Positions 2,962 through 61,764 of a DNA stretch of 64,000 nt are shown here, one piece after another; position 1 is the stretch's first letter, and each line of letters opens with the position of its first letter. Location of the stretch: assembly GCA_035545675.1 (NCBI GenBank), contig DASZYA010000004.1:6519-70518 (forward strand), written 5' to 3'. The translations under genes were made by a program, and so were the position numbers. The stretch comes from Patescibacteria group bacterium (GTDB lineage: Bacteria > Patescibacteriota > Microgenomatia > Levybacterales > GWA1-39-11). The notes beneath the pieces are model-generated. The model saw nothing but the letters and a program-made list of their open reading frames with translations. It was not told where the DNA came from and made no database searches.

Positions 2962-4008
2962 ATGGAAAAAATAAAAACAATAAATCCTAAAATCTTATTA
3001 ATCATATTTCTTTTTCTGATAACCGTCATCTTAATGGCATTTCTAAGCCTTTTAATTGGCCCAAAAAGGAGCAATAAAACAATACCCGAATCTCTTACCC
3101 CCACCCCTGTTCAAGAACAAATTCCGGAGGACGCTGAAATTCCTACCCCCATTATCCAAAATCCGGCAAGCGTTATAACAAATAATCTTGGTCAAGTAAG
3201 CTTCTCTGTTCTAAATCTTTCAATTCCCAAGGAAATGAATATTTACAGCGCAGAACCCGCTCCAATAGATCAGACAACGGCAGACTCAATTGCTCAAAAA
3301 CTAGGGATCGAAACCAAGGGCAAGATTACAACAACAACCAACGGAGACGCGATGAGTTTTTCAGACAAATCAATCAACCTTATTTTTTATCTGACTTCTG
3401 GAAACACTCAATACTTCAACAGCTTAGCAAGCACTAATCAAACACAAGGCAAGAATCTGAATGATTTACAAAATACATCTAAAAATTTCATGGATCTTTT
3501 TTCTCCTTTATCCGATGGGCTCATTATTGATGAGAAAAACACCTCTTTCATCACTGGTAGCGGAGATACAGAGAGCGTACCAAGCTTTGATCAGGCAACA
3601 ATTATAAACATTCCTTTTATACAAACAGTTGATGGTCTACCACTCTATTCACAATTTGGAAGCAACACGCAGGGAAGTGTTTCTATTAATAAAAATGGAC
3701 AAATATTAAGAGTGATACTTAACACCAAGCAGATATTGCTAGCCAAAAAATCTATCCCCACACTAACATTGGATGCAGCCAAAAAGGCCGTAATCAATGG
3801 AAACGCTGTCATAGCAAAGTATGGAACAGATAATGAGGTTTCTCTTCCAAATCCACAAAGTACATTATTCACAAAGGTAAGCTTAGGATATCTAAGAGAT
3901 ACAACAGCAAAACTCCTCTACCCAATCTTTATATTTGAAGGAGTAGCAACAACCGGAGGACAAAACTATCCAATAACAATCTATCTGACAGCTTACGCAA
4001 CTAATTAA
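2962..4008 (+). CDS. hypothetical N-terminally anchored extracellular protein (possible T4SS-associated component)
   Basis: It has a single N-terminal hydrophobic helix (ILLIIFLFLITVILMAFLSLLIG) followed by a hydrophilic Thr/Asn/Ser-rich domain. I recognise no motif in it. Confidence 0.4.
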   Translation: MEKIKTINPKILLIIFLFLITVILMAFLSLLIGPKRSNKTIPESLTPTPVQEQIPEDAEIPTPIIQNPASVITNNLGQVSFSVLNLSIPKEMNIYSAEPAPIDQTTADSIAQKLGIETKGKITTTTNGDAMSFSDKSINLIFYLTSGNTQYFNSLASTNQTQGKNLNDLQNTSKNFMDLFSPLSDGLIIDEKNTSFITGSGDTESVPSFDQATIINIPFIQTVDGLPLYSQFGSNTQGSVSINKNGQILRVILNTKQILLAKKSIPTLTLDAAKKAVINGNAVIAKYGTDNEVSLPNPQSTLFTKVSLGYLRDTTAKLLYPIFIFEGVATTGGQNYPITIYLTAYATN

Positions 4009-5105: not shown

Positions 5106-5241
5106 ATATTATATATATTAGTAGTCGTAGTAGTATATGTGGACAAGTGGAAAAAAGCAACGAAGCACGCCTGTAAAAATGTGGAAAACCTACTGATAAC
5201 TTTGTGAATAATGTGTTGATATTTTTCTATACCCATTTTTA
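5106..5241. promoter_or_regulatory. candidate oriC segment: AT-rich unwinding stretch plus cluster of DnaA-box-like 9-mers between dnaA and dnaN
   Basis: TGTGGACAA (5138-5146), TGTGGAAAA (5180-5188) and TGTGAATAA (5203-5211) are each 1 mismatch from TGTGGATAA, all in the same orientation. They are preceded by ttcatatattatatatattag (5101-5125). Confidence 0.5.
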
Positions 5242-9089: not shown

Positions 9090-10112
9090 GTTTTTATAGA
9101 CAACAACTAGAAGCGAGATGAAAGGAATTGCAAGTAAAGCTCCTGCCATTCCCAAAAGCTTTCCGCCAATAATAATGCTTAGAATTATAACTATTGGGTT
9201 AAGTCCCACTGCTCTTTGCATGATTCTTGGAACGAGAACATGATTCTCAATAAATTGTATAAAGAAGTAAGATACGGCAACAACAATTCCTAAGAATGGC
9301 GAGATACTTAAAGCCACAAAAACAGCTGGAATCGCAGATATTATCGGACCAATGGTTGGAACTATTTCAAAAAGCGCTGCCGTAACAGCAAGCGGTAATG
9401 CAAACTCTATTCCAATAGCAGTCAGAACTACCCAAGTTAAGATTCCTATAAAAGCAGATAGCACTATTTGTCCACGAAGCCAGTTTCCAAGCTTGTCTTC
9501 AACTTGTTCTACTGTTCTTTTTACTTTCGCTTGATTCTTTTTTGGAAATAGCCCGGCAAAGCTGTCTATAACTGTCTCACGATACAAAAGAAGGTAAAAA
9601 GAGATAGCAAAAATTGAAACAGCCGACACTACTCCACCAAAAACTCTGGTAGTTACACTAATTGCATTTGATCCAATATTTCCAAGTTCATTTGTGGCAA
9701 GGCTATTTATTTGAGAGCTGTGAATTCTTGCACCAAAAAAGTCTATGTCGTGATTTAGATACCCCGGCAAAATCGCAAGTAAGGCTGATACCTGGCTAAT
9801 AAAGAAAGGCAGGATTGAGATTATGATTAAAACTAAGACAGCGATAGTTATAAGATACGGGATTGTTGCGGCAAGTGGCCTTGGTACGTTGTGTGATCTC
9901 AAAAACTTAACCACAGGGTAAATTGCAGACATTATGATGTAGGAAACAAAAAGAGCTACAATAATCTCGCGCATTGCAATTATTGCCCAAAATGTTACTA
10001 CAACAAGAAGCGCTGCTAATACCTGATTTTTGAGGAAGAAGTTGATAAATTGTTTTCTCATAGCCTCAATTATAAACATTATAGGTCTAAATTGCAAGTA
10101 AGAATAGGCCAA
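9081..10112 (-). CDS. AI-2E family (UPF0118/PerM-like) membrane transporter
   Basis: 8-TM protein with a conserved C-terminal block (HVLVPRIMQRAVGLNPIVIILSIIIGGKLLGMAGALLAIPF). Confidence 0.6.
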   Translation of the reverse strand: MAYSYLQFRPIMFIIEAMRKQFINFFLKNQVLAALLVVVTFWAIIAMREIIVALFVSYIIMSAIYPVVKFLRSHNVPRPLAATIPYLITIAVLVLIIISILPFFISQVSALLAILPGYLNHDIDFFGARIHSSQINSLATNELGNIGSNAISVTTRVFGGVVSAVSIFAISFYLLLYRETVIDSFAGLFPKKNQAKVKRTVEQVEDKLGNWLRGQIVLSAFIGILTWVVLTAIGIEFALPLAVTAALFEIVPTIGPIISAIPAVFVALSISPFLGIVVAVSYFFIQFIENHVLVPRIMQRAVGLNPIVIILSIIIGGKLLGMAGALLAIPFISLLVVVYKNLE

Positions 10113-10128
10113 ATGCTATAATGACCTT

Positions 10129-11263: not shown

Positions 11264-11395
11264 TATAGTAAAATTTTTATTTCTTAATTTTTAATTCTTA
11301 GCGAATTTTTAATATTTAAAATTTGAAAATTAATAATTCATTGGAAATTAGTAATTAGAAATTGGAAATTGATTAGATTATCTTTATAATCATGA
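11264..11395. repeat. intergenic repeat element copy A (~110 nt, AT-rich, aatttttatttcttaatttttaatt...gaaattag units) upstream of ruvC
   Basis: It is near-identical over ~100 nt to 16998-17110 upstream of msrA. Confidence 0.5.
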
Positions 11396-11399
11396 AGCT

Positions 11400-11882
11400 A
11401 TGATAGTTCTTGGAATAGATCCTGGTATTGGAAGAACTGGTTGGGGAGTAATTGAGGTAAAGGGTTCTAGAAATACCGCCCTTGCATATGACTGTTTTGA
11501 AACTCCTGCGACGAGAGAAACCGCTGCAAGACTAGTTGATTTGCGGGCTGAAATCTTACGAATAATTAAAAAACATAAGCCGGAAATGGTAGGTATTGAA
11601 GAGCTGTTTTTTAATACAAACGCAAAGACCGCTATGGTAGTTGGGCAAGCAAGAGGTGTTGTTTTGGAAGCTATTGCTGAAAATGGAATCCCAATAATAT
11701 CTATGACTCCACCAGAAATAAAAACTGCAGTAGCAGGATATGGAAAGGCAGATAAAGATCAGGTGGGAAAGATGGTAAAAATGCTTTTGGGGCTCCCCTC
11801 TGTTCCAAAGCCGGATGACACAGCAGATGCTTTGGCCTGCGCTTTGGCCTGTTCATTCTCTTATAAGATGAAGCTTGCCTAG
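11400..11882 (+). CDS. ruvC: crossover junction endodeoxyribonuclease RuvC
   Basis: MIVLGIDPGIGRTGWGVIE N-terminus, 160 aa. Confidence 0.85.
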   Translation: MIVLGIDPGIGRTGWGVIEVKGSRNTALAYDCFETPATRETAARLVDLRAEILRIIKKHKPEMVGIEELFFNTNAKTAMVVGQARGVVLEAIAENGIPIISMTPPEIKTAVAGYGKADKDQVGKMVKMLLGLPSVPKPDDTADALACALACSFSYKMKLA

Positions 11883-11899
11883 ATTGATATAATCACTTA

Positions 11900-12322
11900 A
11901 TGACAACCGAGCTAGACAATTTTTTTAAAGAATATCTTGAGGTCTCAAAATCTGGATTTGTTAAAGAAATTCTTCGAGGCTTGCCCTCTAATGTAGAGAG
12001 TGATGCTCGGGTAACCGCTGAGCGTTTGTTTGTGTCTTTTCGAGAAAATCGACTAAACTACAGTTCTGTAACGCTTTTTGAAGGCAGAAATAATGCCGGA
12101 CGAATAATCGCCGCATTGTATTTTGAGCAAAAACAGAAAGCTGGCTATAGTTTCGCTTTAAGCGAATTAATGGGCGAGTTAAGTGATAAAGTTGGCTCCC
12201 ACAAGACACTTGTTCCTGTGTTTGTAGATTTCGGAAGTGATTTAGATTTTGCTAGCGATATTGCAAGCAGAAATGGTGGTAAGTCTTTTAAGAAGATTTG
12301 GGAATTTTCCCCTGTGATATAA
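11900..12322 (+). CDS. hypothetical protein inserted between ruvC and ruvA
   Basis: 140 aa ORF in good context with tight spacing; no motif recognised. Confidence 0.35.
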   Translation: MTTELDNFFKEYLEVSKSGFVKEILRGLPSNVESDARVTAERLFVSFRENRLNYSSVTLFEGRNNAGRIIAALYFEQKQKAGYSFALSELMGELSDKVGSHKTLVPVFVDFGSDLDFASDIASRNGGKSFKKIWEFSPVI

Positions 12323-12332
12323 TCTTTGAGAA

Positions 12333-12902
12333 ATGATTGGATACCTCAATGGAAGTGTAATTGTAAGAGACGATCCCCTGTTAATAATTGAGGTAAATAG
12401 TGTTGGTTATAGGGTTCACGCAACTTCTGCTGTGCTCTCCTCCATTGTTGATAACAAAGTAAAAGTTTTTACATACACCCACGTTAGAGAAGATATTCTT
12501 GAGCTTTATGGGTTCTCAAAATACTCAGACCTTAAGCTTTTTGAAATGTTAATAAATGTAAGTGGTGTTGGTCCGAGAACTGCTATTGGGATTTTTTCTG
12601 TCGGAACGGCAAGCGAGATAACTCGCGCAATAATGGACGCGGATACTTCTTTTTTCACTCGTGTGCCTCGCCTTGGTGGTAAAAATGCTCAAAAGATAAT
12701 AATAGAATTAAAAAACAAAATTGGAGGCGAAGGAGTTTTGGATTTGGGAGATGGAATAGTTTCCCAGAGAAATGAGCTTGCCGATGCGCTAAGATCTTTT
12801 GGGTTTTCAAAAGACGAGATTAATGACGCAGCGCGTAATATAGATGGCTCAAAATCTGTTGAAGAGCAAATAAAGACGGCACTAAAGTACTTGGGAAAGT
12901 GA
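12333..12902 (+). CDS. ruvA: Holliday junction DNA helicase subunit RuvA
   Basis: MIGYLNGSV...VGYRV...LINVSGVGPRTAI (HhH), 189 aa. Confidence 0.8.
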   Translation: MIGYLNGSVIVRDDPLLIIEVNSVGYRVHATSAVLSSIVDNKVKVFTYTHVREDILELYGFSKYSDLKLFEMLINVSGVGPRTAIGIFSVGTASEITRAIMDADTSFFTRVPRLGGKNAQKIIIELKNKIGGEGVLDLGDGIVSQRNELADALRSFGFSKDEINDAARNIDGSKSVEEQIKTALKYLGK

Positions 12903-12973
12903 TTAAAGATTAAAGATTAAAGATTAAAGATTAAAGATTAAAGATTAAAGATTAAAGATTAAAGATTAAAGAT
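12903..12973. repeat. (TTAAAGA)n heptamer tandem repeat, ~10 copies, filling the whole ruvA-ruvB spacer
   Basis: A direct read of tgattaaagattaaag...gattaaagat followed immediately by ATG of ruvB. Confidence 0.9.
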
Positions 12974-14011
12974 ATGGTTAATATAAAGAAAACAAAGGGA
13001 ACGATTGTTGATGAGGCTACAACTCCGGAAGAAGAGGTTGTATTTACTACTCTTAGAGTCTCTGATTGGGATGATTTTGTAGGCCAAACAACGGTTAAGA
13101 AATCAATGCAGATTGGAATAGCTGCTGCCAAGAAAAGAAAAGAGCCGCTTGAACACGTCCTTCTTTATGGGCCTCCTGGACTTGGCAAGACAACCCTATC
13201 TCACCTGATCGCAAAAGAAATGGGCGCAAATATCCGCGTTACCAGTGGTCCGGCAATTGAGCGCGCCGGAGACCTTGCCTCTATTCTCACAAATTTAGAA
13301 GCCGGAGACGTTTTGTTTATTGATGAGATTCATAGGTTAAATAAAATAGTTGAAGAAACCCTGTATCCCGCAATGGAGGATTATGCTCTAGACATAGTTA
13401 TTGGTAAAGGGCCTTCGGCTCGTACTGTTAGGCTTGATCTTCCCCGCTTTACCATAGTTGGTGCAACAACTAGGGCCGGAATGTTATCTGGTCCGCTTCG
13501 TGATCGTTTTGGTGTAGTTCATAGAATGGTTTTCTATTTGCCGGAAGAGTTAGAAAAAATTGTAGAAAAAGCAGCAGCGAAACTAAAAGTAAAAATAGAT
13601 AAGGCTTCAATTGCAGAAGTTGCAAAAAGAGCTCGGGGTACACCTCGCATTGCGCTAAGGCTTCTAAAGCGCGCTCGTGATTATTCAGAAGTTCATGGTA
13701 AAGGTGATATAACGCACGACCTCACAGAAGAAGCGTTGGGTCTTCTCGAGGTTGATCCAATGGGACTAGATCATTTAGACAGACGTTATCTAAAAAGTAT
13801 TATAGAGAAGCATAGCGGTGGTCCAGTTGGAGTTGAAACAATCGCCGCCACCCTATCAGAAGACACAGGAACAATAGAGGAAATTGTTGAACCATACCTT
13901 TTGCAAATTGGATTTATAAAAAGAACAAAAGGTGGACGCGTTGCAACCCCTGAGGCTTATCGCCACTTGGAAATTAAGCAAAAAAAATCAGGACAACAAA
14001 ACCTTTTATAA
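12974..14011 (+). CDS. ruvB: Holliday junction branch-migration helicase RuvB
   Basis: [20 protein letters not shown] Walker A, sensor regions, 345 aa. Confidence 0.9.
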
Positions 14012-14056
14012 CCACTTGACAACAAATTAGCACTCGTGGTACTCTAGTGCTAGACT

Positions 14057-16210
14057 ATGAATGATGACAACCAAAACATTGCAGACTTATTAAAGCCAGT
14101 CACTCCAGAGGAAGCGCTTAAGAAATTTACATATAATCTTACAGAGCAAGCCCGCGAGCACAAGATTGATCCCGTTGTTGGACGCGAAACAGAAATTAGA
14201 CGCGTCATGGAAATTTTATCTCGAAGAACAAAAAACAATCCTATTCTTCTTGGTGATCCCGGAGTTGGTAAAACAGCAATCGTAGAGGGTCTCGCACAAA
14301 AAATTGCAACAGGCGCAGTTCCAAGCGTTCTTAAAAACAAAGAATTAATAGTTTTGGACTTCGCGCAATTGTTGGCAGGTGCTAAGTTTCGCGGAGAATT
14401 TGAAGAAAGATTAAAAGGTGTTGTAAAAGCAGTTGAGGACTCCAATGGGAAATATATTATGTTTATTGATGAGATCCACATTCTTATTGGGGGAGGAGCA
14501 GCGGAGGGATCAGTTGATGCAGCAAATATTCTTAAGCCCTCTTTGGCCCGTGGATTGCTTAGAACGATTGGTGCTACAACGCTAAGCGAATACAGAAAAT
14601 ATATTGAGAGGGATGCGGCTCTTGCAAGGCGCTTTCAGCCCGTTAACGTTGACGAGCCAACAATTGAAGATACAATTGCAATCCTTCGCGGTATTAAAGA
14701 AAAATATGAGCTTCATCATGGAATTAGAATTACAGACAATGCTCTAATTGCTGCTGCTAAACTTTCTTCCCAATATATTCCCCACCGCTTTCTACCAGAC
14801 AAGGCTATAGATTTGGTAGATGAGGCAACTGCCTCTATTAAGATTGAGACTGAAAGTATGCCTTTTGAGCTAGATCAATTAAAAAGAAAAATTACTCAAA
14901 TAGAAATAGAGTTAGCTGCTTTAAAAAATGATAAAAGTACCCTTGCAAAAACGAGACGGGAGAATTTGGAAAAAGACCTTAAAGAATTAAAAGAAAAAGC
15001 AGGTGGAATTGAGGAGCGTTGGAATGAGCAAAAAGGGCTTATTCAGAAAATTCAGGAACAACGTGCAAAAATTGATGCTCTTAAGATAGAGTTAGATCGC
15101 GCTGAACAAAATGTAGATCTAAACCGCGCAGCAGAAATAAAATACGGAAAACTGCCTCAGCTAGAAGAGGAACTTAAGAAAATAACTAGCGAGTGGGAGA
15201 AGATTCCAGAAGAAAACAGAGTTTTACGTGAAGAGGTTGATGAAAATGATATTGCAAAAGTTGTTAGTCGTTGGACAGGGATTCCGGCAACAAGACTCCT
15301 TGCAACGGAAGCAGAACGCCTAACTCATCTTGAGGACGAGCTTAAAAAAAGAGTCATAGGTCAGGATGATGCTCTTAAGATTTTGGCACGCGCTATCAGG
15401 AGAAGCAGAACTGGGTTATCTGCAAAAGATAAACCAATCGGTTCATTTTTGTTCTTGGGTCCAACGGGAGTTGGTAAAACAGAAACCGCAAAGGCATTGG
15501 CCGAAATACTATTTTCAGATGAGCATGCGATAGTAAGGATAGACATGAGCGAGTATCAGGAGCAGCATTCTGTAGCGCGTCTTATTGGTGCGCCTCCAGG
15601 ATATGTAGGTTACGAAGAAGGCGGACAATTAACAGAGGCAGTTCGCCGCCGTCCCTACTCTGTAGTTTTGCTGGATGAAATAGAAAAGGCAAATCCTAGC
15701 GTTTTCAATATTTTGTTGCAAGTATTTGATGATGGAAGACTAACCGATTCAAAAGGTGTAACGGTAGATTTTCGTAACACTATAATTATTATGACTTCAA
15801 ATCTGGGATCAGAAATAATCAGAAAGAAGACGGGTAAAAATAATGAAGCTATTGAGCGAGAACTCATGGAGCTTTTGCATAAAAGCTTTAAGCCAGAGTT
15901 TCTTAATAGGCTTGATGGAATAGTTGTTTATGATTCTCTAACCGAGATTGAAATTAAAGAAATTTCAAAGCTTCAGCTAGAAGATGTTAAAAGACGCCTG
16001 GCAGAAAACAACATTGTTCTTGATATAACCGATAGTCTTGTTTCATACTTTGCAAAAGAGGGTTTTGATCCCATCTTTGGCGCCAGACCCTTAAGAAGGC
16101 TTATAGAAGAAAAGCTGGTTGATGAAGTTGCCATGCAGATTTTGGAAGAAAAAGTAAAACCAGGCATGACCATTAAACCCACCGTTAAAGATGATAAGAT
16201 CAGCTTATAG
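14057..16210 (+). CDS. clpB: ClpB-type AAA+ disaggregase lacking the N-terminal domain
   Basis: Two NBDs (GDPGVGKTAIVEG; GPTGVGKTETAKAL) and a coiled-coil M-domain (LDQLKRKITQIEIELAALKND...). It starts at the linker preceding NBD1 (IDPVVGRETEIRRV), 717 aa. Confidence 0.8.
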   Translation: MNDDNQNIADLLKPVTPEEALKKFTYNLTEQAREHKIDPVVGRETEIRRVMEILSRRTKNNPILLGDPGVGKTAIVEGLAQKIATGAVPSVLKNKELIVLDFAQLLAGAKFRGEFEERLKGVVKAVEDSNGKYIMFIDEIHILIGGGAAEGSVDAANILKPSLARGLLRTIGATTLSEYRKYIERDAALARRFQPVNVDEPTIEDTIAILRGIKEKYELHHGIRITDNALIAAAKLSSQYIPHRFLPDKAIDLVDEATASIKIETESMPFELDQLKRKITQIEIELAALKNDKSTLAKTRRENLEKDLKELKEKAGGIEERWNEQKGLIQKIQEQRAKIDALKIELDRAEQNVDLNRAAEIKYGKLPQLEEELKKITSEWEKIPEENRVLREEVDENDIAKVVSRWTGIPATRLLATEAERLTHLEDELKKRVIGQDDALKILARAIRRSRTGLSAKDKPIGSFLFLGPTGVGKTETAKALAEILFSDEHAIVRIDMSEYQEQHSVARLIGAPPGYVGYEEGGQLTEAVRRRPYSVVLLDEIEKANPSVFNILLQVFDDGRLTDSKGVTVDFRNTIIIMTSNLGSEIIRKKTGKNNEAIERELMELLHKSFKPEFLNRLDGIVVYDSLTEIEIKEISKLQLEDVKRRLAENNIVLDITDSLVSYFAKEGFDPIFGARPLRRLIEEKLVDEVAMQILEEKVKPGMTIKPTVKDDKISL

Positions 16211-16308
16211 CCTATAAAGAATTTCTAGTTAGAAATTGTAAGTTAATTAGAAATTAGAAATTAATTACAATACTTGATACTTAATACTCAATACCCGATA
16301 CTAATCTC

Positions 16309-16995
16309 ATGGAAAGGTATTTAACTCGCGACAGACTGCTGGAGGTTAGTAAGCACAAGCACTTTGGTTGGGGAGTGTCTTTTGTCATTGCCCTACTCAT
16401 ACTTGACCTTCTTTTTTTAAATTACAAAATAATATTTGTAAAACCAACTCTAGGAAGTAATATTCAATCTCAAACAACACAAACAGCAAGTAATTCGGAA
16501 GGCTCAACAATTACTGAGGCAAAAGACAGTTGTGGTCAGAATTGCCAGGCTTATATAAATAAGGCAATTTCTGATGCGATGGGTGAATCAAGAACAACAA
16601 GTGTTGGCACAAATACTTCTGCAAACCCCGCTAGTGAATACTTTGTGCCTCTTGGTAGCGGAGTTATTAATTCAACCTCGTGGCAAACAGTAGCTGGGAT
16701 GCAGGCATATATAGATAGTTCCGCTTATTCAAATATTGGTACTGTGACGTTTGAGATATCTATTAGTATCCCCTCCGGTAATGAAACTGCCAATTTTCAA
16801 CTTTATGACCAAACACAAAATCACCCTGTTTGGAATTCTGAAGTAACTTTTACGGGTGGTGGAACTCCACAGCTTTTGATATCTGCTCCCATTACTCTTG
16901 ATCCTGGCAATAATTTATATGTTGTGCAAGCTCAAACCCAACTACCCTTCCCTGCCTATATAACTCAAGCAAGGGTCCATATCATCACGCAATAG
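16309..16995 (+). CDS. hypothetical membrane-anchored secreted protein
   Basis: N-terminal TM (GWGVSFVIALLILDLLFL), then a Ser/Thr/Asn-rich domain. Confidence 0.35.
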   Translation: MERYLTRDRLLEVSKHKHFGWGVSFVIALLILDLLFLNYKIIFVKPTLGSNIQSQTTQTASNSEGSTITEAKDSCGQNCQAYINKAISDAMGESRTTSVGTNTSANPASEYFVPLGSGVINSTSWQTVAGMQAYIDSSAYSNIGTVTFEISISIPSGNETANFQLYDQTQNHPVWNSEVTFTGGGTPQLLISAPITLDPGNNLYVVQAQTQLPFPAYITQARVHIITQ

Positions 16996-16997
16996 AT

Positions 16998-17110
16998 TGC
17001 GTAATTTTTATTTCTTAATTTTTAATTTTTATTGAATTTTTAATGTTTTAAAATTTGAAAATTAATAATTGATTAGAAATTAGAAATTAGAAATTAGAAA
17101 TTAACCCGAT
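16998..17110. repeat. intergenic repeat element copy B plus (GAAATTA)4 tandem heptamers upstream of msrA
   Basis: It aligns with 11264-11395. gaaattagaaattagaaattagaaatta lies at 17080-17107. Confidence 0.5.
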
Positions 17111-17147
17111 ACTTGATACTAAATACTTAATACTTCATACTGTTGGT

Positions 17148-17723: not shown

Positions 17724-19157
17724 TTGAAAAAATTTTTCACAAGTGCTACGCTAAATCTTGTGAAGATCAAAATTGTTCCTGTCCTTTTGGTTATCATAGC
17801 TGTTTTAGTTGCCGGAATTCTATTTATGGCGGTAAAAAGCGGTGGCCTATTCAGTAGCAATAGCGCAACAATCTCAGGAAAGTTTGATATCAATGGTGTT
17901 ATTCCCGATGGTTCCACAATTACCCTTACAGAAAGAGAATTAAGTGCTCCAAAGGCAAAGGTCTTTGCAAGTGGAGTTCCTGTAGCAGATGAAGAGGAAT
18001 GGAGTTTTAATAATGCTACTAAGAATAAAACCTATGAAATTCAGGCACAAGTTGTTGTAAATGGCGCAGTAGTTACAACTTCAAGTCCCGTTGAAATAAC
18101 AGCTCCAGCAAGTGACGAGACGCTCACTCTTAATATTCAGTCAGATGAAAAAAAGACTGCCGTAATTTCTGGATCAATTGTAGTTAATGGTTATATTCCA
18201 AAGGGTTCAACAATAACTATCAAGGGGAGAAAGCTTGGTGTAAACGAGTTTACCACTGTTGCAAGCAACTTAAATGGACAGGCCAGACAGTTTATGAGTT
18301 ACACAACAGCAGTTGCCGGAACAACATATGAAGTAGAAGGAGTTCTTGTAAGTCCTTCCGGTCAAGAGATTGGTGCTTCAAGCCTTCTTTCTGTTACGGC
18401 CCCCGCAATTGACGAAACACTAACCATTAATTCTTCTGCCCAGTCGCCAACCATAGTTGCAAATACTCCAACTTCTGTTCCAACTACAGCTAGCGCTCCA
18501 TCATCAACTCCCGTTCCCGCTGCTCCATCTGCAGTGGTTTCTGGTGGAATTAACTTTAACGGTGCAGCACCAAGTAATTCTAGAATCGTTGTGTTTCAAA
18601 AACCTTTAAATGGATCAAGTTATCAAGTTGCGGTTGATAATATTTCTCCAATTGATGGAACTGCCTGGCAATGGAACGGAGCCCAAGCTTCTACTTGGTA
18701 TACAATGATTGCGATTCTAAAACAAAGAAATGCTAATGGTACAGATACGGATATTGCAACTTCTGCTCCGGTTACAATTGCAGCTCCTGCTACAAATGTA
18801 ATATTCACTATTAACTCCGGCGTTTCTCTCCAAGGGCCTGGCGGACCAATTACTGTTACTTGCCAAACTTATAATGGTGGACCAAACCAAAACAATTGGA
18901 ATGTAACGGTTAACTTTGGAACCGTATCTGGGGCTCAGTCATATTGGCTTCAGATAGGGTCCACAAATGGAGGAAATAATCTTACAAATACTACTCAGAA
19001 TGTTCAGGCCGGAAGTAACCAGACAATTGGGGTGACATTTAACAACAACACAACTTATTATGCTCGTTATGCATATGCAAATATTCCAAATGCTGGGGTA
19101 AGTAATTCTCAGTATTCAGCCTTTTCATCCACCACTCCTCTTCAGTGTAGCCACTGA
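17724..19157 (+). CDS. cell-surface protein with N-terminal anchor and internal repeated beta-rich domains
   Basis: TM helix, then repeated modules (SGKFDINGVIPDGSTITL / SGSIVVNGYIPKGSTITI; VEITAPASDETLTLN / LSVTAPAIDETLTIN / VTIAAPATNVIFTIN). Confidence 0.45.
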   Translation: MKKFFTSATLNLVKIKIVPVLLVIIAVLVAGILFMAVKSGGLFSSNSATISGKFDINGVIPDGSTITLTERELSAPKAKVFASGVPVADEEEWSFNNATKNKTYEIQAQVVVNGAVVTTSSPVEITAPASDETLTLNIQSDEKKTAVISGSIVVNGYIPKGSTITIKGRKLGVNEFTTVASNLNGQARQFMSYTTAVAGTTYEVEGVLVSPSGQEIGASSLLSVTAPAIDETLTINSSAQSPTIVANTPTSVPTTASAPSSTPVPAAPSAVVSGGINFNGAAPSNSRIVVFQKPLNGSSYQVAVDNISPIDGTAWQWNGAQASTWYTMIAILKQRNANGTDTDIATSAPVTIAAPATNVIFTINSGVSLQGPGGPITVTCQTYNGGPNQNNWNVTVNFGTVSGAQSYWLQIGSTNGGNNLTNTTQNVQAGSNQTIGVTFNNNTTYYARYAYANIPNAGVSNSQYSAFSSTTPLQCSH

Positions 19158-19214
19158 TTAAAGATTAAAGATTAAAGATTAAAGATTAAAGATTAAAGAT
19201 TAAAGATTAAAGAT
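19156..19214. repeat. (GATTAAA)n heptamer tandem repeat, ~8 copies, second locus
   Basis: Same unit as 12903-12973. It starts at the TGA stop of the surface-protein gene. Confidence 0.9.
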
Positions 19215-19246
19215 GCATTCATTATTCGTTAATCATTATTCTTAAT

Positions 19247-19390
19247 TCATCTGATTATCCCAAGTGCGAGGAGGCCGGAGATTATAAGATAAGCGGCAAT
19301 TAGATAATTAAGAGCCCTTGGAAAGGCCAAGATCAGAATTCCAAAAAGAATTGAAACAACAGGGTCTAGATTGTTAAAAGCTATGCTCAT
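19247..19390 (-). CDS. small hydrophobic membrane protein (47 aa from internal Met; ORF open to 19501)
   Basis: MSIAFNNLDPVVSILFGILILAFPRALNYLIAAYLIISGLLALGIIR. Its ATG overlaps the stop of the upstream gene (ctaatg). Confidence 0.35.
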   Translation of the reverse strand: MSIAFNNLDPVVSILFGILILAFPRALNYLIAAYLIISGLLALGIIR

Positions 19391-37185: not shown

Positions 37186-37201
37186 GTGATCTTAATCACT
37201 C
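37186..37201. promoter_or_regulatory. CRP/FNR-type palindrome TGTGA-N6-TCACT
   Basis: A direct read: tgtgatcttaatcact. Confidence 0.45.
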
Positions 37202-37630
37202 AAAGGGGTTGTTGTTTTTCATGAATTGATAGGATTTCTCTACTAACTTGGTAAGTGTATCTAGGTCTACATCTGATAGCTTATTTATATAAAGGCAGCC
37301 TCCCATTCCGCCACTGGTTTTGTGCTTGCCCAGTTTTTTCAATAGTGCCTCGCTCTCATTGTTGCCGTGCATAATATATAGAGTTAAATTGGCTTTTCTT
37401 GGGGAGAATCCAACGAGCATCCAGTCTCCTTCTTGGGAACTTTTTTTGGATTTGTAATGATATTTACCAAAACCAACAATACTTCCACCCCACATCACTG
37501 CTTTTTCGCCAGTAATGTTTTCAAACATTTCTAGCAATTTAAGGGCGTCTTTTCTTTTTTCTTCAGGTTCAATAGTATTTAAAAAATCTTTGGGGTCTTG
37601 GGTTGTGACTTTTGTTTTTAACTCTGCCAT
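37196..37630 (-). CDS. DUF1801 (YdhG/YdeI-like) protein, second paralog
   Basis: DPKDFLNTIEPEEKRKDALKLLEMFENITGEKAVMWGGSIVGFGKYHY. Confidence 0.5.
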   Translation of the reverse strand: MAELKTKVTTQDPKDFLNTIEPEEKRKDALKLLEMFENITGEKAVMWGGSIVGFGKYHYKSKKSSQEGDWMLVGFSPRKANLTLYIMHGNNESEALLKKLGKHKTSGGMGGCLYINKLSDVDLDTLTKLVEKSYQFMKNNNPFE

Positions 37631-38176: not shown

Positions 38177-38250
38177 TGCTCCCCCGCGTGGACTCGGACC
38201 ACGAACCTTATTCTTAACAGGAATCTGCTCTACCATTGAGCTACAGGGGA
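38177..38250 (-). tRNA. tRNA-Asn (anticodon GUU)
   Basis: Hand fold of the reverse complement: acceptor TCCCCTG/CGGGGGA, D-arm GCTC-AATGGTA-GAGC, anticodon loop CTGTTAA, T-arm CGTGG-TCCGAGT-CCACG, discriminator G. Confidence 0.7.
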
Positions 38251-38342
38251 ATGTCCTGACAATTGACAACTAACAATTGACAATTGACGCTCGTAACATT
38301 GAATTATATAAAACCTGAAGCTGATTGTAAATTACTAAGCGG

Positions 38343-47246: not shown

Positions 47247-47360
47247 AAGTTATACCTATTCTACTCTCAATTTGTGCTTAAAGCAAGGGTACGATTGGGT
47301 GTTGGGTCTTAGTTCTTGATTTTTGGTTTTTCCTAAGATCTAGGATCTAATAACCAAGAT

Positions 47361-49151
47361 CTAGCTTAGGAGTTTGGAGTATTTATTAAATTCTGTTTCT
47401 AGCTCTTCTACTTTTTGGCTGTCCTTTTCTTTTTCTGCTTCACCAATTAACGTTCCAAGTTTTTTAAGTTTTGCTCGGACGCTTGTAGTTTTGGCTTGCT
47501 TTGCAATCTTTTCAATTTCTGTTTTTAGTTTCTCATCACTGTTAAAATCAGCAATCGGTGCAATTGAAGCTGTATCAAAAGCCATTTTGAGTTCACTTGG
47601 TAAATATGAGGCAAAATGGCTTGCATCAAATGTAGTGCTAGTTTGCGTATAGTCTTCAAGTTTTTTTAAAACCTTCTCGTATGAGGGGTTTGTGAGGCCA
47701 ATCCCATCCAATACTGTTTTTGCGGTTACTAAAAATTCTTTAGGACGGGGCGATTGAAAAATCAAAGATAAAAGATATGTTTCAATTTTCTCCTCTTTTG
47801 TTAGTTGGCGATTAATATCTGATACTACTTTTTTGGGTTCTGGTTTTGTGCTCTTTTGAGCCTGACGTGTAACTGAGTCAAGAGAAACGTCAAGTTTTTC
47901 TGCCAATTTTTTAAGATAATGCTCTTTTATAACCTCGTTTTCTATTGCGGCAAGATATGGTAGAGTTCTGTCTAGTATCTTTTTCATTCCCTCAGCGCTC
48001 GCCTTATCTGATTCTTTTATCGCTGAGTCAATAATGAAGTCATAAACATTTATGTCATCTCTCATTGCCTTCTTAAAAGCTGGCGCGTTTTCATTTAGTA
48101 GTTCATCTGGATCTTTACCTAGAGGAGGAATAATAACTGTGGCTGTAATTCCCTCATGTTCAATTAATTGAATTGATCTACGCTGTGCTTCTGTTCCGGC
48201 CTTATCTGTGTCAAAACAAAATACAAATTTTGGAGCAAAACGTTTTAGAAGTTTTATTTGATTTTCTGTTAAGGCAGTTCCTTTGACTGCGACTATATTT
48301 GTAATTCCTTCCTTGTGAGCCGTTATTACATCAAACTCTCCTTCAACAATTATTACTTTCCCCTCTTTTTTAATTCCATCACGAGCAAGATTTATTCCAA
48401 AAAGAGTGTCACCCTTTACATAAACCGGAGTTTCACGAGTGTTTACATATTTTGGTTGGGTTTCAGCATTTAACCCACGGCCCGAGAAGGCAATAACATT
48501 TCCACGGGCATCAATTATTGGAAAGATTATTCTACTTCTAAAAAAGTCTGATACGTAGCGTCCACGCCTAAAACCAAGACCCGCATTAAGAACTTCATCC
48601 TCTGTGTATTTTTTCTTGCCAATAAGATATTTGACTAACGCATCATTGTCTGGTGCAAACCCAAGATTGAAAGTTTTTATAAGCGGAATAGACATTTTTC
48701 TTTCATTCAATAAATAATCTAGTGCTTTTTTTCCAACCGGATGGCTAAGCAATAGATAGTTATAAAATTGGGAGGTAAGATGATTTAGGGAGTAAATTGA
48801 CTCTTGTTTCTTCTCTCTTTCTGTTCTGGCTGCTGGGGCGCTAAGCTTTATTCCAGCCCGCATTGCAAGTTCTTTCAGAGCTTCTCCAAATCCAATATTT
48901 TCGTACTCTTCTACAAAAGTAAAAACATCTCCTCCTTTTTGACACCCAAAACAGTGCCAAATTTGACGATCCGGAGATACTACAAAAGAAGCGCTTTTTT
49001 CATCATGGAATGGACAATTGGATTTAAAGTTACGTCCTGCTTTCTTAAGCTGAATATAGCTTCCAATTACATCAACTATATCTAGTTTTTGTTTTACTTT
49101 TTCTATATCGTCCATGGGTATAACAAACAACTGACAATTGACCACTGACAA
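47361..49151 (-). CDS. dnaG: DNA primase DnaG (ORF opens at a TTG at 49151; the conserved N-terminus begins at the ATG at 49114)
   Basis: Zinc-binding CPFHDEKSASF..WHCFGCQKGGD; TOPRIM IIVEGEFDV..DTDKAG. Confidence 0.85.
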   Translation of the reverse strand: MSVVNCQLFVIPMDDIEKVKQKLDIVDVIGSYIQLKKAGRNFKSNCPFHDEKSASFVVSPDRQIWHCFGCQKGGDVFTFVEEYENIGFGEALKELAMRAGIKLSAPAARTEREKKQESIYSLNHLTSQFYNYLLLSHPVGKKALDYLLNERKMSIPLIKTFNLGFAPDNDALVKYLIGKKKYTEDEVLNAGLGFRRGRYVSDFFRSRIIFPIIDARGNVIAFSGRGLNAETQPKYVNTRETPVYVKGDTLFGINLARDGIKKEGKVIIVEGEFDVITAHKEGITNIVAVKGTALTENQIKLLKRFAPKFVFCFDTDKAGTEAQRRSIQLIEHEGITATVIIPPLGKDPDELLNENAPAFKKAMRDDINVYDFIIDSAIKESDKASAEGMKKILDRTLPYLAAIENEVIKEHYLKKLAEKLDVSLDSVTRQAQKSTKPEPKKVVSDINRQLTKEEKIETYLLSLIFQSPRPKEFLVTAKTVLDGIGLTNPSYEKVLKKLEDYTQTSTTFDASHFASYLPSELKMAFDTASIAPIADFNSDEKLKTEIEKIAKQAKTTSVRAKLKKLGTLIGEAEKEKDSQKVEELETEFNKYSKLLS

Positions 49152-49170
49152 TTGACCACTGACAATTGAC
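49128..49170. repeat. three direct copies of CTGACAATTGACCA immediately upstream of the dnaG start
   Basis: A direct read; a related motif occurs at 38251-38290. Confidence 0.6.
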
Positions 49171-49341: not shown

Positions 49342-50868
49342 ATGTTTGCCAAGGTTTTTTCAGGCGCTGTCATTGGGCTTGATGGGGTTTTGGTTGAGGT
49401 TGAAACAGATATTCTGTCTGGACTACCGGCTTTTAATATTGTGGGCTTAGCAGACCGCGCTGTAGAAGAATCTCGTGAACGAGTTAGGTCTGCTCTAAAA
49501 AATATTTCAGCAGATTTACCTGCCAAAAGAATCACTGTAAATTTAGCACCCGGCGATCTACCAAAAGAAGGTTCATCCTTTGATCTTCCGATTGCCATTT
49601 CAATACTTCTTGCAACGGGACAATTATCAGCAGATGTTTCGCGCTCCATGTTCTTGGGAGAATTGTCTTTGGATGGTTCGGTTCGTAATACCAACGGGGT
49701 TTTGCCGGTGGTGTTGCTAGCCAAAGAGCTTGGAATGGAGAATATTTTTGTCCCTGAGCAAAATATATTAGAAGCTGCCGTTGTATCGGGTGTTAATATC
49801 TATCCGGTAAAAACTTTAAAAGAAATTTTTCTTCATTTGTCTGGTCAAAAAATCTTAGAGGTTTTTCCGCAAGCCTCTTATGAGAGTTATCTAAAGGATG
49901 AAGAGTACGATTTTGATATGAGAGATATTAAGGGACAGGAATTTGTAAAGCGCGCAATAGAGATTGCAGTTGCCGGAGGACACAATATCTTACTTAAAGG
50001 GCCACCCGGAAGTGGAAAAACCTTAATATCAAAAACCGTCCCATCAATTCTTCCGCCACTTACTTTTGATGAAGCAATTGAGGTAACAAAGATTTATAGT
50101 ATCTCGGGTCTTCTTGGTAAAAATGCTCTCATGGTTGTCCGCCCTTTTAGGAACCCCCATCATACTACGTCTCATATCGGGCTAATTGGTGGATCAGCTG
50201 TTCCCAAGCCAGGAGAAGTGTCACTTGCACATCGCGGAGTTCTATTCTTAGATGAATTTCCTGAATTCCCAAGACAAGTTCTTGAAGCTCTTCGTCAGCC
50301 CTTAGAGGATGGTCATGTAGTTGTTTCTCGTGCTCGCCAAAGAGTAACTTTTCCAAGCCGCTTTATGCTAGTTGCTGCTCTTAATCCATGTCCTTGTGGG
50401 TTTTATGGAGATCCAAATAATGAATGTAAATGTACTTATTCTCAGGTTCTTCGTTACCAAAAAAGGGTTTCAGGGCCAATGCTAGATAGAATTGATATTC
50501 ATATTGATGTTCCAGCAGTTAAAGCTTCAAAGATAGTAAATGATGATGAAGAAGAGGGAGAGTCTTCTAAAAAGATAAGAGGGCGCGTTGTAAAAGCTCG
50601 TAAAGTTCAAGAGAATCGTTTTAAGGGCAAAAAAGTTATTACAAATAGCGAAATGAGTACGCGAGACATAAAGCAATTGTGTAAAATAGATGAAGAAGCA
50701 AAGGAAGTCTTAAAGCAAGCACTTCTTAAGCTCTCTTTATCTGCTCGGGCGTATCATAAGGTCATAAAAATTGCCCAGACTATTTCTGATCTAGATAATT
50801 CTGACACTATTTCTCGAAATCATGTCCTTGAGGCCCTGCAATATAGACCCAAATTGGCAGAGAGCTGA
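49342..50868 (+). CDS. comM: YifB/ComM-family Mg-chelatase-like AAA+ ATPase
   Basis: N-terminal Lon-like domain (VFSGAVIGLDGVLVEVE), Walker A GPPGSGKT, C-terminal ChlI-like domain. Confidence 0.8.
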   Translation: MFAKVFSGAVIGLDGVLVEVETDILSGLPAFNIVGLADRAVEESRERVRSALKNISADLPAKRITVNLAPGDLPKEGSSFDLPIAISILLATGQLSADVSRSMFLGELSLDGSVRNTNGVLPVVLLAKELGMENIFVPEQNILEAAVVSGVNIYPVKTLKEIFLHLSGQKILEVFPQASYESYLKDEEYDFDMRDIKGQEFVKRAIEIAVAGGHNILLKGPPGSGKTLISKTVPSILPPLTFDEAIEVTKIYSISGLLGKNALMVVRPFRNPHHTTSHIGLIGGSAVPKPGEVSLAHRGVLFLDEFPEFPRQVLEALRQPLEDGHVVVSRARQRVTFPSRFMLVAALNPCPCGFYGDPNNECKCTYSQVLRYQKRVSGPMLDRIDIHIDVPAVKASKIVNDDEEEGESSKKIRGRVVKARKVQENRFKGKKVITNSEMSTRDIKQLCKIDEEAKEVLKQALLKLSLSARAYHKVIKIAQTISDLDNSDTISRNHVLEALQYRPKLAES

Positions 50869-51010
50869 TAGGTGTTAGCTCATAGGTTTTAGGGAATAGG
50901 GATTAGAGAAATTCAATTATCAAATTCCAATTAATCAAACCAATTAATAAATAACAAAAGATAGCGAGTTTGAAAATTGATCAATTGATTTAATTGGTAA
51001 TTAATTAAAA

Positions 51011-52510: not shown

Positions 52511-52598
52511 GAATCTAGTATAAGATATCAGGTGTTAAGTATTAAAGAGTTAACGAGTTAAAGAGTTTAAAATTTATCTGTGATCCAAGATCTAAGAA

Positions 52599-53102
52599 CT
52601 AAGATCTATTTTCGATTGCTGTAATCTTATCTATTCTTCTCTGGTGTCTTGCTTCTCCAGAAAATGGAGTTTCAATAAATACTTTAGATGCCTTCTCGGC
52701 ATCCTCTTTTGTAACAAAGCGAACTCCAAAAGAAAGCATATTTGCATTGTTATGAATCCTTGCGAGTTTCACTATCTCAAAGGGATCAGAACTTTTTGTG
52801 CCATTTATGTCAATGGAATCTATTGGAGCTGCTGCTGTATAAAATAATGCGCAACGAATTCCTGGATATTTATTAGCAGCCATTTGTTCTCCTTGTCCCG
52901 ATCCTCCTATTACGATTCCAAAACTTCCAGGATTTTGACTGACTTTTTGTGCGGCTAGTCCAATAAAGTCTGGATAGTCGTCATCTGGATCATATTTCTC
53001 TGGTCCGCAGTCTTCTACATCATAGTTGTCATCAACCAGATATCTTCTAATGGCTGCTTTTAGATCTAATCCTGTATGATCTGCTGCTATATAAATTTTC
53101 AT
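52599..53102 (-). CDS. rpiB: ribose-5-phosphate isomerase B
   Basis: MKIYIAADHTGLDLKAAI. Confidence 0.75.
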   Translation of the reverse strand: MKIYIAADHTGLDLKAAIRRYLVDDNYDVEDCGPEKYDPDDDYPDFIGLAAQKVSQNPGSFGIVIGGSGQGEQMAANKYPGIRCALFYTAAAPIDSIDINGTKSSDPFEIVKLARIHNNANMLSFGVRFVTKEDAEKASKVFIETPFSGEARHQRRIDKITAIENRS

Positions 53103-53123
53103 AATTAACCTAAAACCTAATCT

Positions 53124-57611: not shown

Positions 57612-57656
57612 GGATTAGGATTTAGGGAATAGGGATTAGAGATTTAATCTGCTATT

Positions 57657-57694
57657 CGCTATTCGCTATTCGCTATTCGCTATTCGCTATGTAT
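57657..57694. repeat. (CTATTCG)n tandem heptamer repeat, ~5.5 copies
   Basis: A direct read, between the PBP1A stop and the pgk start. Confidence 0.8.
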
Positions 57695-60535: not shown

Positions 60536-60666
60536 AGCCTATTATATCAAACTATTGATGATTGATTATTGATTAATGATTAAAGTTTAAAATCAACTGA
60601 AAATTAAAACATATAAAATCATTAAGAATTAGGAATTAAAAATTGCTTTGATCTAGGATCTGATAA

Positions 60667-61764
60667 CTAAGAACTAGCTTGTGGAGTTGTTTGAGCCTGT
60701 GTTCCGAGCAATATTGTTTCTTCAATGAGTCTGTTTGAGTATCCAAATTCATTGTCATACCAAGCAATGACTTTTACCATGTTCCCACCAACAACTTGAG
60801 TAAGGGATAGATCTGCAATTGATGAGTGATAGTTGCCAATAATATCAGAAGAAACTATTGGATCATGCGTTGTTGCAAGAATTCCTTCAAATTGTGGTTG
60901 TTTTGATGCATTCTCAAGAGCCTGATTTACTTCTTCTACCGTTGTGTCACGTTTTACCAAAAAGGTAAAGTCTGATAAGGATCCTGTTGGGACAGGAACA
61001 CGGACTGCTAATCCATTAAATTTACCCTCTAAGCTTGGAATAGCTTTTGCTGCTGCTTTTGTAGCACCAGTTGAAGTTGGAATAATGTTTGCTGCTGCGG
61101 CTCTTGCTCTCCTGTAATCTTTGTGCCCTCCGTCTTGAAGTCTTTGATCGGAAGTATATCCATGAATTGTAGTCATCATGGCCTTTTCTATCCCAAAAGT
61201 TGTTTCCATTACATGTGCAACTGGAGTTATGCAGTTTGTTGTGCAACTTGCGTTACTTATGATGTTTTCTGTTTTTGAACTTCCATCTTGGTTCATGTTG
61301 ACTCCAAGTACATACGTAGATCCACTCGCCTCGTCTTTAAAAGGAGCAGAAAGGATTGCGGCTTTGGCTCCGGCCTGAAGATGTTTTTGGAGTCCTTCTT
61401 GGGTTGTAAATGCTCCGGTTGATTCAATAACTATATCTACGTTTAAATCTTTCCATGGAAGTTTTTCTGGTTCACGACCCGAGAAAACTGGGATTTCTTT
61501 TCCATTTATAACAAGTGCTCCAATGAGTGGGGTTTGGCTTTGAAAAGGAAGACTTACTTCTTCCGCTTTTTTAACTGATAGCTCAATTCCTTGAAGTGGT
61601 CCATAAACTGTATCGTATTTAAGAAGATACATCCAGCCAGTAATATCGGTTGATGACCCGGCATTAATTCCAACAACGTCTACTTCATCCATGTGGGATA
61701 GAAGAATTACTCGATGAGCAACACGCCCTATTCTTCCATAACCATTGATTCCAACCCTTACCAT
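60667..61764 (-). CDS. gap: glyceraldehyde-3-phosphate dehydrogenase
   Basis: VRVGINGYGRIGR; ASCTTNC. Confidence 0.9.
   Translation of the reverse strand: MVRVGINGYGRIGRVAHRVILLSHMDEVDVVGINAGSSTDITGWMYLLKYDTVYGPLQGIELSVKKAEEVSLPFQSQTPLIGALVINGKEIPVFSGREPEKLPWKDLNVDIVIESTGAFTTQEGLQKHLQAGAKAAILSAPFKDEASGSTYVLGVNMNQDGSSKTENIISNASCTTNCITPVAHVMETTFGIEKAMMTTIHGYTSDQRLQDGGHKDYRRARAAAANIIPTSTGATKAAAKAIPSLEGKFNGLAVRVPVPTGSLSDFTFLVKRDTTVEEVNQALENASKQPQFEGILATTHDPIVSSDIIGNYHSSIADLSLTQVVGGNMVKVIAWYDNEFGYSNRLIEETILLGTQAQTTPQASS

Follow-up and report, generated by a model that had tools for sequence, protein, structure and literature searches.

Perfect GATTAAA arrays in the ruvA-ruvB spacer and at a second gene end of a Levybacteria genome: probable slippage microsatellites in a new host lineage

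In the long simple sequence repeats (LSSRs) of prokaryotes, 7-nt units can follow one another head to tail, with period 7 dominating, and the parts of PMC4679880 and PMC4692102 devoted to them describe an intergenic bias, a sporadic phylogenetic distribution and variation in length and sequence between close relatives at the same sites; the explanation of these heptamers by polymerase slippage is that of Mrazek, Guo & Shah (2007), as summarised in passages of both articles. Among cyanobacteria, several heptamer families are dispersed over many loci of one genome in Calothrix and Nostoc, including (GGGGATT)26 between pecE and pecF (PMC4692102), while in Nostoc (GACYAAT)8 overlaps the start of recO and heptamer repeats at recO and recF have a reported regulatory effect (bioRxiv 10.1101/2022.06.06.494920). 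The TAACTGA direct repeats of marine Beggiatoaceae stand immediately before starts without a Shine-Dalgarno (SD) sequence, those of housekeeping genes included, and a role in translation has been proposed for them; there, one unit dominates, in 2–6 copies per set and in forward orientation before the starts (PMC4679880). The GGGAATC repeats of Xanthomonas are intergenic, G-rich and quadruplex-forming, and occur between the same gene pairs in related species with extensive variation in length and sequence and with some inverted pairs (PMC4692102). Here we describe two perfect GATTAAA arrays, one of which fills the spacer between ruvA and ruvB, in a 64,000 nt stretch (the window; positions are on the + strand) of a metagenome-assembled genome (MAG) of the candidate phyla radiation (CPR; Patescibacteria), whose nearest named relatives by RuvB comparison are Candidatus Levybacteria; our search of the literature for CPR heptamer repeats or leaderless CPR genes returned nothing specific.

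Array 1, (GATTAAA)10.4, spans 73 nt (12901–12973, + strand) and array 2, (GATTAAA)8.4, spans 59 nt (19156–19214, + strand). Both are perfect period-7 repeats of the identical unit (100%) with an A+T content of 86%, and direct reading, Tandem Repeats Finder (TRF) and a scan for exact runs were concordant in calling them. Array 1 takes in the last two bases of the ruvA stop codon, TGA (12900–12902), and ends abutting the ruvB ATG, the 71-nt spacer being array throughout. The initial annotation, which used the rotation TTAAAGA of the same unit, had estimated some ten copies from the ruvA TGA to the ruvB ATG and some eight at the TGA of a second gene, and both estimates agree with the coordinates given here. 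Gene assignments by Pfam place ruvC at 11400–11882, ruvA at 12333–12902 (+ strand, 189 aa; RuvA_N/HHH_5/RuvA_C) and ruvB at 12974–14011 (+ strand, 345 aa; RuvB_N/AAA_lid_4/RuvB_C); the RuvA C-terminus, LKYLGK*, agrees with its orthologs, and RuvB orthologs align with the window protein beginning at residue 1. Array 2 starts likewise at the second base of a TGA (19155–19157), that of a 477-aa open reading frame (ORF; 17724–19157, + strand), and lies in a convergent 3′-3′ spacer with no gene downstream on its strand. This ORF has a syntenic ortholog in the closest relative, and its earlier designation as a surface protein is plausible from its hydrophobic N-terminal segment and its richness in serine and threonine, although it has no Pfam match. 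The boundaries T|GATTAAA...GAT| are common to both arrays, as are the strand and the end phases. A chance origin is excluded: the 14-mer GATTAAAGATTAAA had 21 matches with up to two mismatches compared with 2.8 expected, a number that none of 100 shuffles reached. The same search retrieved a degenerate GATTAAA-like triplet (GATTAAT GATTAAA GTTTAAA) at 60571–60591 (+ strand), and the motif TGATTAA(A)GAT occurs at a third gene end of the window, where ORF 37196–37630 stops with TGA and TGATTAAGAT is present in a single copy (37186–37198, − strand).

An assembly artefact made of collapsed or chimeric low-complexity reads could be suspected in a short-read MAG, and is favored by the breakage inside the arrays of Logan de Bruijn contigs, made with a second assembler from run SRR12170518, which probably also supplied the reads of the MAG. 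However, all four unique array flanks are present in these contigs and each enters its array, indicating that the arrays exist in the reads. The contigs extend 30, 27 and 29 nt into the arrays on three sides, and these breaks at 27–30 nt match the behavior of a k = 31 graph at a repeat; on the fourth side, contig L220 (L-numbers label compared loci and contigs; 3611–3618 corresponds to window 19207–19214) ends only 8 nt into array 2, from its right side, which could be due to low coverage or to a sequence variant at that array end in the sample. Additionally, lengths of 59–73 nt are below typical read lengths, and many relatives whose genomes were assembled independently have like arrays at the ruvA-ruvB junction, all of which makes an artefact scarcely credible. 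The copy numbers 10.4 and 8.4 are those assembled in the MAG; the Logan contigs stop within the arrays.

Period 7 is by no means restricted to these two sites. Exact arrays of at least three units in the window were all of period 7, and the four found consist of GATTAAA (twice), ATTAGAA and GCTATTC. TRF detected 22 period-7 arrays, of which the two GATTAAA arrays are the longest; all 22 fall in intergenic DNA, which makes up 7.9% of the window, and one or more are present in 13 of the 39 spacers that measure 40 nt or longer. Near-periodic stretches add up to 360 nt at lag 7, compared with no more than 32 nt at other non-multiple lags and with 0 nt of near-periodic lag-7 sequence in second-order Markov simulations (n = 20). 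In the autocorrelation of intergenic DNA, lags 7, 14 and 21 stand out as peaks (0.368 vs. ~0.285), and the peak persists when both GATTAAA arrays are left out (0.352); coding DNA of the window showed no peak at these lags, only a 3-nt periodicity.

The comparison with relatives revealed a rapid turnover of arrays at orthologous sites. Per 100 kb, period-7 arrays of at least three copies reach a density of 32.8 in the window, compared with 11.6 for the nearest Levybacteria loci, 6.8 for the rest of the Patescibacteria and 3.7 for RuvB loci of other bacteria, and period 7 is the top repeat class in every taxon group compared. In at least 10 relatives, the orthologous junction is either an overlap or an array of unrelated units: ruvA and ruvB overlap by ATGA in L009, L010 and L227 and by TAATG in L225, while the junction consists of (ATGAATC)n in L005 and L229/L230 (forming, in L005, a hairpin with an inverted partner array), of (AATTTGA)9 followed by (AAAATTA)4 in L006, and of a 9-mer repeat in L004. 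The closest relative, represented by three concordant assemblies (L222/L223/L224) with full synteny and a RuvB 87% identical to that of the window, has there 42 nt of degenerate ACCAATT-type heptamers without GATTAAA, and (GATTAAA)3 was absent from all 80 RuvB loci searched for it. At locus 2, the ortholog in the closest relative reads CCAC-TAA-TTAA-(CTTAAAA CATAAAA CTTAAAA)-CAT-GC; this short related array between conserved flanks indicates that array 2 of the window grew in place. Overall, the syntenic 21 kb contain 11 arrays in the window and three in L222, and conservation between both genomes extends to the DnaA boxes, the −10 boxes and the CIRCE (controlling inverted repeat of chaperone expression) operator before clpB, but not to the arrays. 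Heptamer arrays with stop-free units also occur within coding loops of relatives (L006 6380–6412, L008 7737–7770, L009 8936–8966 and L010 7194–7223; L010 5669–5700 and L004 6833–6865). For instance, (AAGTTCA)n encodes a loop of RuvC in the genomes of five relatives but not in the window, and one site of a valyl-tRNA synthetase-like gene carries (GATTTAC)4.6 in one species and (GTCAAAA)4.7 in another. The overall pattern bears the apparent signature of a lineage-wide mutational process filtered by selection.

We therefore favor, with a probability of roughly 60%, the view that both arrays are slippage-generated heptanucleotide microsatellites of a known kind, similar to LSSRs and cyanobacterial repeats, in a new host lineage. 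The arrays are probably not a special control element of ruvB. Their description as slippage-prone is supported, in that they are perfect heptanucleotide microsatellites in a genome and a clade where period-7 arrays dominate and turn over rapidly. Slipped-strand mispairing at replication, of which copy-number variation is the hallmark, would have made the arrays and kept them perfect, in a lineage that would gain sequence mainly through period-7 slippage, and new copies would persist where sequence is unconstrained, that is, in short spacers, upstream of extended −10 promoters and at gene 3′ ends and, in relatives, also in protein loops. The ancestral ruvA-ruvB junction would have been a stop/start overlap, opened repeatedly, in different Levybacteria, by arrays of unrelated units, of which (GATTAAA)10 would be the recent version of the window lineage, and array 2 would have expanded from an older TTAAA-type array at its locus.

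With LSSRs, the GATTAAA arrays share all the traits given above: head-to-tail, unspaced units, a length beyond chance, a genome-wide intergenic excess of period 7 and, in sporadic distribution, rapid turnover between relatives. They differ in that a CPR/Levybacteria host is not among the lineages described in the searched parts of that literature, and in that many AT-rich units coexist here. The cyanobacterial short tandemly repeated repetitive (STRR) sequences are alike in the dispersal of several families over many loci of one genome, in forming intra-operon spacers or abutting starts, also at DNA-repair genes, and in the presence of inverted pairs. Nevertheless, STRR sequences belong to heterocystous cyanobacteria, another phylum than that of this Levybacteria MAG, and the units of the window have no G-quadruplex potential. 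The known STRR units also appear to differ in sequence from those of the window. As with the TAACTGA repeats of Beggiatoaceae, heptamers precede an SD-less start of a housekeeping gene at ruvB, where array 1 ends at position −1, but not at locus 2; the unit is another one, GATTAAA, and in contrast to a single dominant unit in a few copies the window has many units, up to 10 copies and one GATTAAA array without a downstream gene. The Xanthomonas repeats resemble the window arrays in recurring, with much variation, at the same gene pairs of related species, and differ from them in their G-rich, structured nature, the GATTAAA arrays being unstructured.

The unit, strand and both boundaries that the two arrays have in common could also reflect copying, by which the ruvA-ruvB junction received a GATTAAA array or its seed from locus 2, at a distance of 6.2 kb, whether through ectopic gene conversion, through template switching or by means of a small mobile element, with arrays spreading as dispersed families. 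In agreement with this, a related ancestral array exists in the closest relative at locus 2 and none at locus 1, and unit families recur far above chance: among the arrays there are five identical unit pairs vs. 0.42 expected, and 27 pairs within one mismatch vs. 8.0 expected, neither value being attained in 2,000 simulations. The recurring families are GATTAAA, ATTAGAA, GATACTT, AGATCTT, TTAGGxx, TGACAAT and GCTATxx. Furthermore, the gene ends that carry AGATCTT-type arrays are not the same in the window as in L222, and a module of about 100 nt, with inverted blocks (AATTTTT/ATTTCTT)n ... (ATTAGAA)n, is present twice on the + strand, upstream of ruvC (11272–11370) and between ORF 16309–16995 and msrA (17003–17102). 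The module copies are identical in 91 of 99 positions (92%), and both orthologous sites in L222 lack it, showing that array-bearing sequence has been copied in the window lineage. The copy at 17003–17102 forms an extended A/U hairpin (−25 kcal/mol, z = −4.9) and that at 11272–11370 less markedly (z = −2.5); the module looks like a miniature inverted-repeat transposable element (MITE) or a recently copied sequence.

By contrast, the GATTAAA arrays have none of the hallmarks of a mobile element that the initial annotation suggested, although their common unit, strand and phase and the copied module keep that idea alive. Their flanks are alike only in a single T, terminal inverted repeats and a target-site duplication are lacking, there is no transposase in the vicinity, and, judged as MITEs or repetitive extragenic palindromic sequences, they have no inverted arms and fold no better than shuffles. 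Likewise, it is not very improbable that one AT-rich 7-mer recurs among 22 arrays, given the 0.42 identical pairs expected, and GATTAAA arises easily, as contigs of unrelated organisms with (GATTAAA)≥4 number 17 among viral and more than 120 among metagenome sequences. None of these stretches, retrieved in public scans with (GATTAAA)4, came from a close relative, the best identity to proteins of the window being 52–60% (ClpB), and the scans show only that GATTAAA is common in AT-rich, heptamer-rich DNA. A richness in heptamer arrays, often as inverted pairs of one unit, was also seen in unrelated DNA, namely in two MAGs, one of Clostridiales and one labelled ‘Bacteroidota’, and in a contig from a metagenome (arrays at L072 1793–1889 and 2539–2654; L076 10986–11305; L134 3135–3800), and in L134 GATTAAA appears at several loci, interleaved with AGCTGAA arrays. 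On balance, we consider copy-and-paste unlikely as the general explanation. For the narrower point of why unit, strand and phase are shared, copying from locus 2 to locus 1, by ectopic conversion or template switch, has a little less than an even chance, and a shared seed, TGATTAAAGAT, is a somewhat more tentative possibility.

Slippage as the favored origin has to face several observations that weigh against it. The array units are not independent draws, and their recurrence so far above chance means that pure local slippage is insufficient; equally, two arrays sharing strand and both end phases would be expected in only about 1 of 49 cases under random phases. The constant orientation within each array family could mean a role at the RNA level, and the proposed route of ruvB expression is read from sequence. 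A broader view, which we find decidedly unlikely, would make the heptamer arrays a self-propagating class of tiny dispersed elements whose blocks are copied between loci, as the hairpin module has clearly been, and then co-opted, array 1 being a recent copy of that at 19156–19214 with a copy number that tunes the ruvA:ruvB ratio. Co-option would then concern spacers that uncouple ruvB, regions upstream of extended −10 promoters and 3′ arrays with stops in several frames, and would be unspecific for sequence, in a leaderless genome.

The expression context of ruvB bears on whether array 1 has a function. An SD-like core precedes only 3 of the 79 ORFs used for start-region statistics, and in 42 of them a sequence that matches TATAAT at 5/6 positions or better ends 0–12 nt before the start, even within gene clusters; the most frequent spacing from this box to the start is 6 nt, and 19 of the 42 carry the TG of an extended −10 (examples of boxes are at 12315–12323, 11385–11390 and 10110–10128). 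As judged from sequence, the gene starts of the window are of a leaderless-type layout, which is common to the Levybacteria relatives and was not seen in Firmicutes controls. The lack of a conventional SD before ruvB, which had drawn attention initially, is thus real without being special. A TATAAT-type box is present for ruvC, for a 140-aa ORF and for ruvA, though not for ruvB, and the extended −10 box TGATATAAT, 9 nt before the ruvA ATG (12315–12323, + strand), is likely the promoter of a leaderless ruvA(-ruvB) transcript. Because ruvB has no promoter box of its own, it would be co-transcribed from this extended −10 promoter. We rejected a promoter inside array 1, where the best −10 score was 0.3 bits with a position weight matrix (PWM) trained on the boxes of the window itself, which score 3.3 at the lowest and 8.9 at the median; a consensus promoter scan yielded no match in 12903–12973, and neither the scan nor the PWM revealed a −35 or −10 element within the array or around it. 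RNA structure is also absent from the array, with a minimum free energy of −4.1 kcal/mol over 141 nt (z = +1.8 vs. shuffles), and pairing of array 2 with a degenerate ATTCATT-like period-7 array directly 3′ of it (19217–19250, + strand; TRF) was not better than chance (z = −0.87). Array 1 contains no ATG, GTG or TTG and has a TAA in every unit. It would then act passively, as an A/U-rich spacer without structure or start codons that took the place of the ancestral stop/start coupling; ribosomes that end at the ruvA UGA and re-initiate, or that load independently of an SD, would reach the ruvB start as the first AUG.

These same properties, together with the position next to the ATG, could instead be those of a 5′ spacer selected for ruvB, acting as an A/U-rich translation enhancer of the S1 or standby type or as a contingency-type copy-number knob for the level of RuvB; without the −10 box that most genes have, ruvB needs an internal route of translation, and the reports on Beggiatoaceae and Nostoc (PMC4679880; bioRxiv 10.1101/2022.06.06.494920) would be precedents by analogy. 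Yet an identical array stands at locus 2, in a convergent spacer that has no gene downstream on its strand, and the junction of relatives has no spacer or unrelated units, with no sequence-specific element conserved. Contingency loci usually have units of 1–5 nt, and these lie within the ORFs of surface or virulence genes or in between their −35 and −10 elements. Array 1 is similar to them as a slippage-prone perfect repeat close to a gene start, but has a 7-nt unit and lies between the stop and start codons of a housekeeping repair operon, neither within an ORF nor between −35 and −10, whereas array 2 is in a 3′-3′ spacer, downstream of the stop of a possible surface protein. The array-flanking genes elsewhere in the window (dnaG, pgk, gap, fba, rpiB and a penicillin-binding protein [PBP] gene) likewise appear to be housekeeping genes rather than of contingency type. 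A contingency switch of ruvB, as had been proposed, finds no positive evidence in these data, and a selected expression element in general appears highly unlikely to us. Changes in copy number could shift the ruvA:ruvB ratio, with no sign of selection for it.

The recurrence of the arrays at stop codons, also stressed in the initial annotation, is correct insofar as both start at a TGA, and follows largely from spacers being very short and from the presence of TAA in each of the unit's three frames. The T|GA boundary after a long ORF was seen in only two of 143 other metagenomic (GATTAAA)≥4 arrays, and no general link of GATTAAA arrays to TGA stops was found there. Both arrays and several other families begin at stops, in one orientation to the upstream gene (constant in 2/2, 3/3 and 3/3 cases), and intrinsic-terminator-like sites are not enriched (8 vs. 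7.1 expected in 8.7 kb), as would suit an array at gene 3′ ends that binds a roadblock, a nucleoid protein or a terminator factor in place of a terminator. However, stop adjacency is expected anyway with spacers of 20–150 nt and stop-bearing units, a unit without C is a poor Rho-utilisation site, we found no candidate binding protein, many different units are in use, and GATTAAA is not conserved at the junction in any relative. The suggestion of a protein- or RNA-binding array is accordingly without positive evidence, and we deem it very improbable.

A ruvA-ruvB spacer filled by an ordinary, if unusually clean, microsatellite is in itself a minor finding. It shows, though, that a CPR genome of minimal size still has ~33 heptamer arrays per 100 kb, and extends to Patescibacteria the long-unexplained period-7 bias of bacterial SSRs. 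Sister genomes at 83–87% protein identity provide natural before/after pairs (overlap, unrelated arrays, perfect array), which can be used for studying the birth of arrays and the translation of internal cistrons in a nearly SD-free genome. For annotation and assembly, it matters that heptamer arrays break k-mer assemblies and define ORF ends. The wider context of a heptamer-rich genome of leaderless type, with hairpin modules of inverted arrays and a series of junctions, is perhaps worth a separate study.

Several of the remaining arrays of the window adjoin promoter-like sequences. Two arrays of the GATACTT type end in GATACT-6 nt-ATG (16269–16294, + strand; the proximal part, promoter-like, is kept in L222) and, before msrA, in CATACT-6 nt-ATG (17109–17141, + strand; TRF), and the consensus scan reads both regions (16269–16308 and 17109–17147) as TTGATA-17-(G/C)ATACT promoters; such arrays seem to supply −35-like and −10-like hexamers of leaderless promoters. 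A perfect (GCTATTC)5.7 array abuts the TGTATAAT box of pgk (57651–57690, + strand). The two TGACAAT-family arrays, (TGACAAT)4.6 adjoining tRNA-Asn (38178–38250) at 38257–38288 (+ strand) and (ACTGACAATTGACC)2.9, of period 7/14, in the divergent spacer between dnaG and a Mg-chelatase-like gene at 49127–49170 (+ strand), contain repeated TTGACA/TTGACC hexamers resembling −35 boxes. This tRNA was the sole match of an Rfam search of the whole window, which gave none for the arrays.

Other arrays are associated with gene ends. TTAGGxx-type arrays begin at the stops of three genes (57608–57644, 50863–50892 and 53103–53123); the first, TTAGGGA-type and on the + strand, begins at the TAA stop of the PBP gene, and the last constitutes the whole 21-nt fba-rpiB spacer. 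AGATCT-rich arrays (TAGATCTTGG...) include or abut the TAG of dnaG (47333–47363), rpiB (52582–52608) and gap (60645–60670), in equal orientation to the gene in all three; those of dnaG and rpiB, AGATCTT-type and on the − strand, include the stop codon. A comparable AGATCT-rich stretch occurs in L222 at 14831–14856, there 3′ of a different gene, msrA. The sequence AGATCT is a palindrome and contains GATC.

Regarding the elements kept in L222, the CIRCE-like inverted repeat TTAGCACTC-N9-TAGTGCTAG is located at 14027–14053, upstream of the clpB-like gene, and the TGTGGA motifs resembling DnaA boxes are in the dnaN-dnaA spacer (5106–5241); the window probably adjoins oriC. Lastly, the segment 42184–44547 has a G+C content of 0.55, compared with ~0.37 elsewhere, and spurious ORFs on both strands. 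As an rRNA gene, and with it a possible source of an anti-SD sequence, it was rejected; it corresponds to a gene similar to those for pyruvate phosphate dikinase (PPDK) or phosphoenolpyruvate (PEP) synthase, and may be a recent horizontal acquisition.

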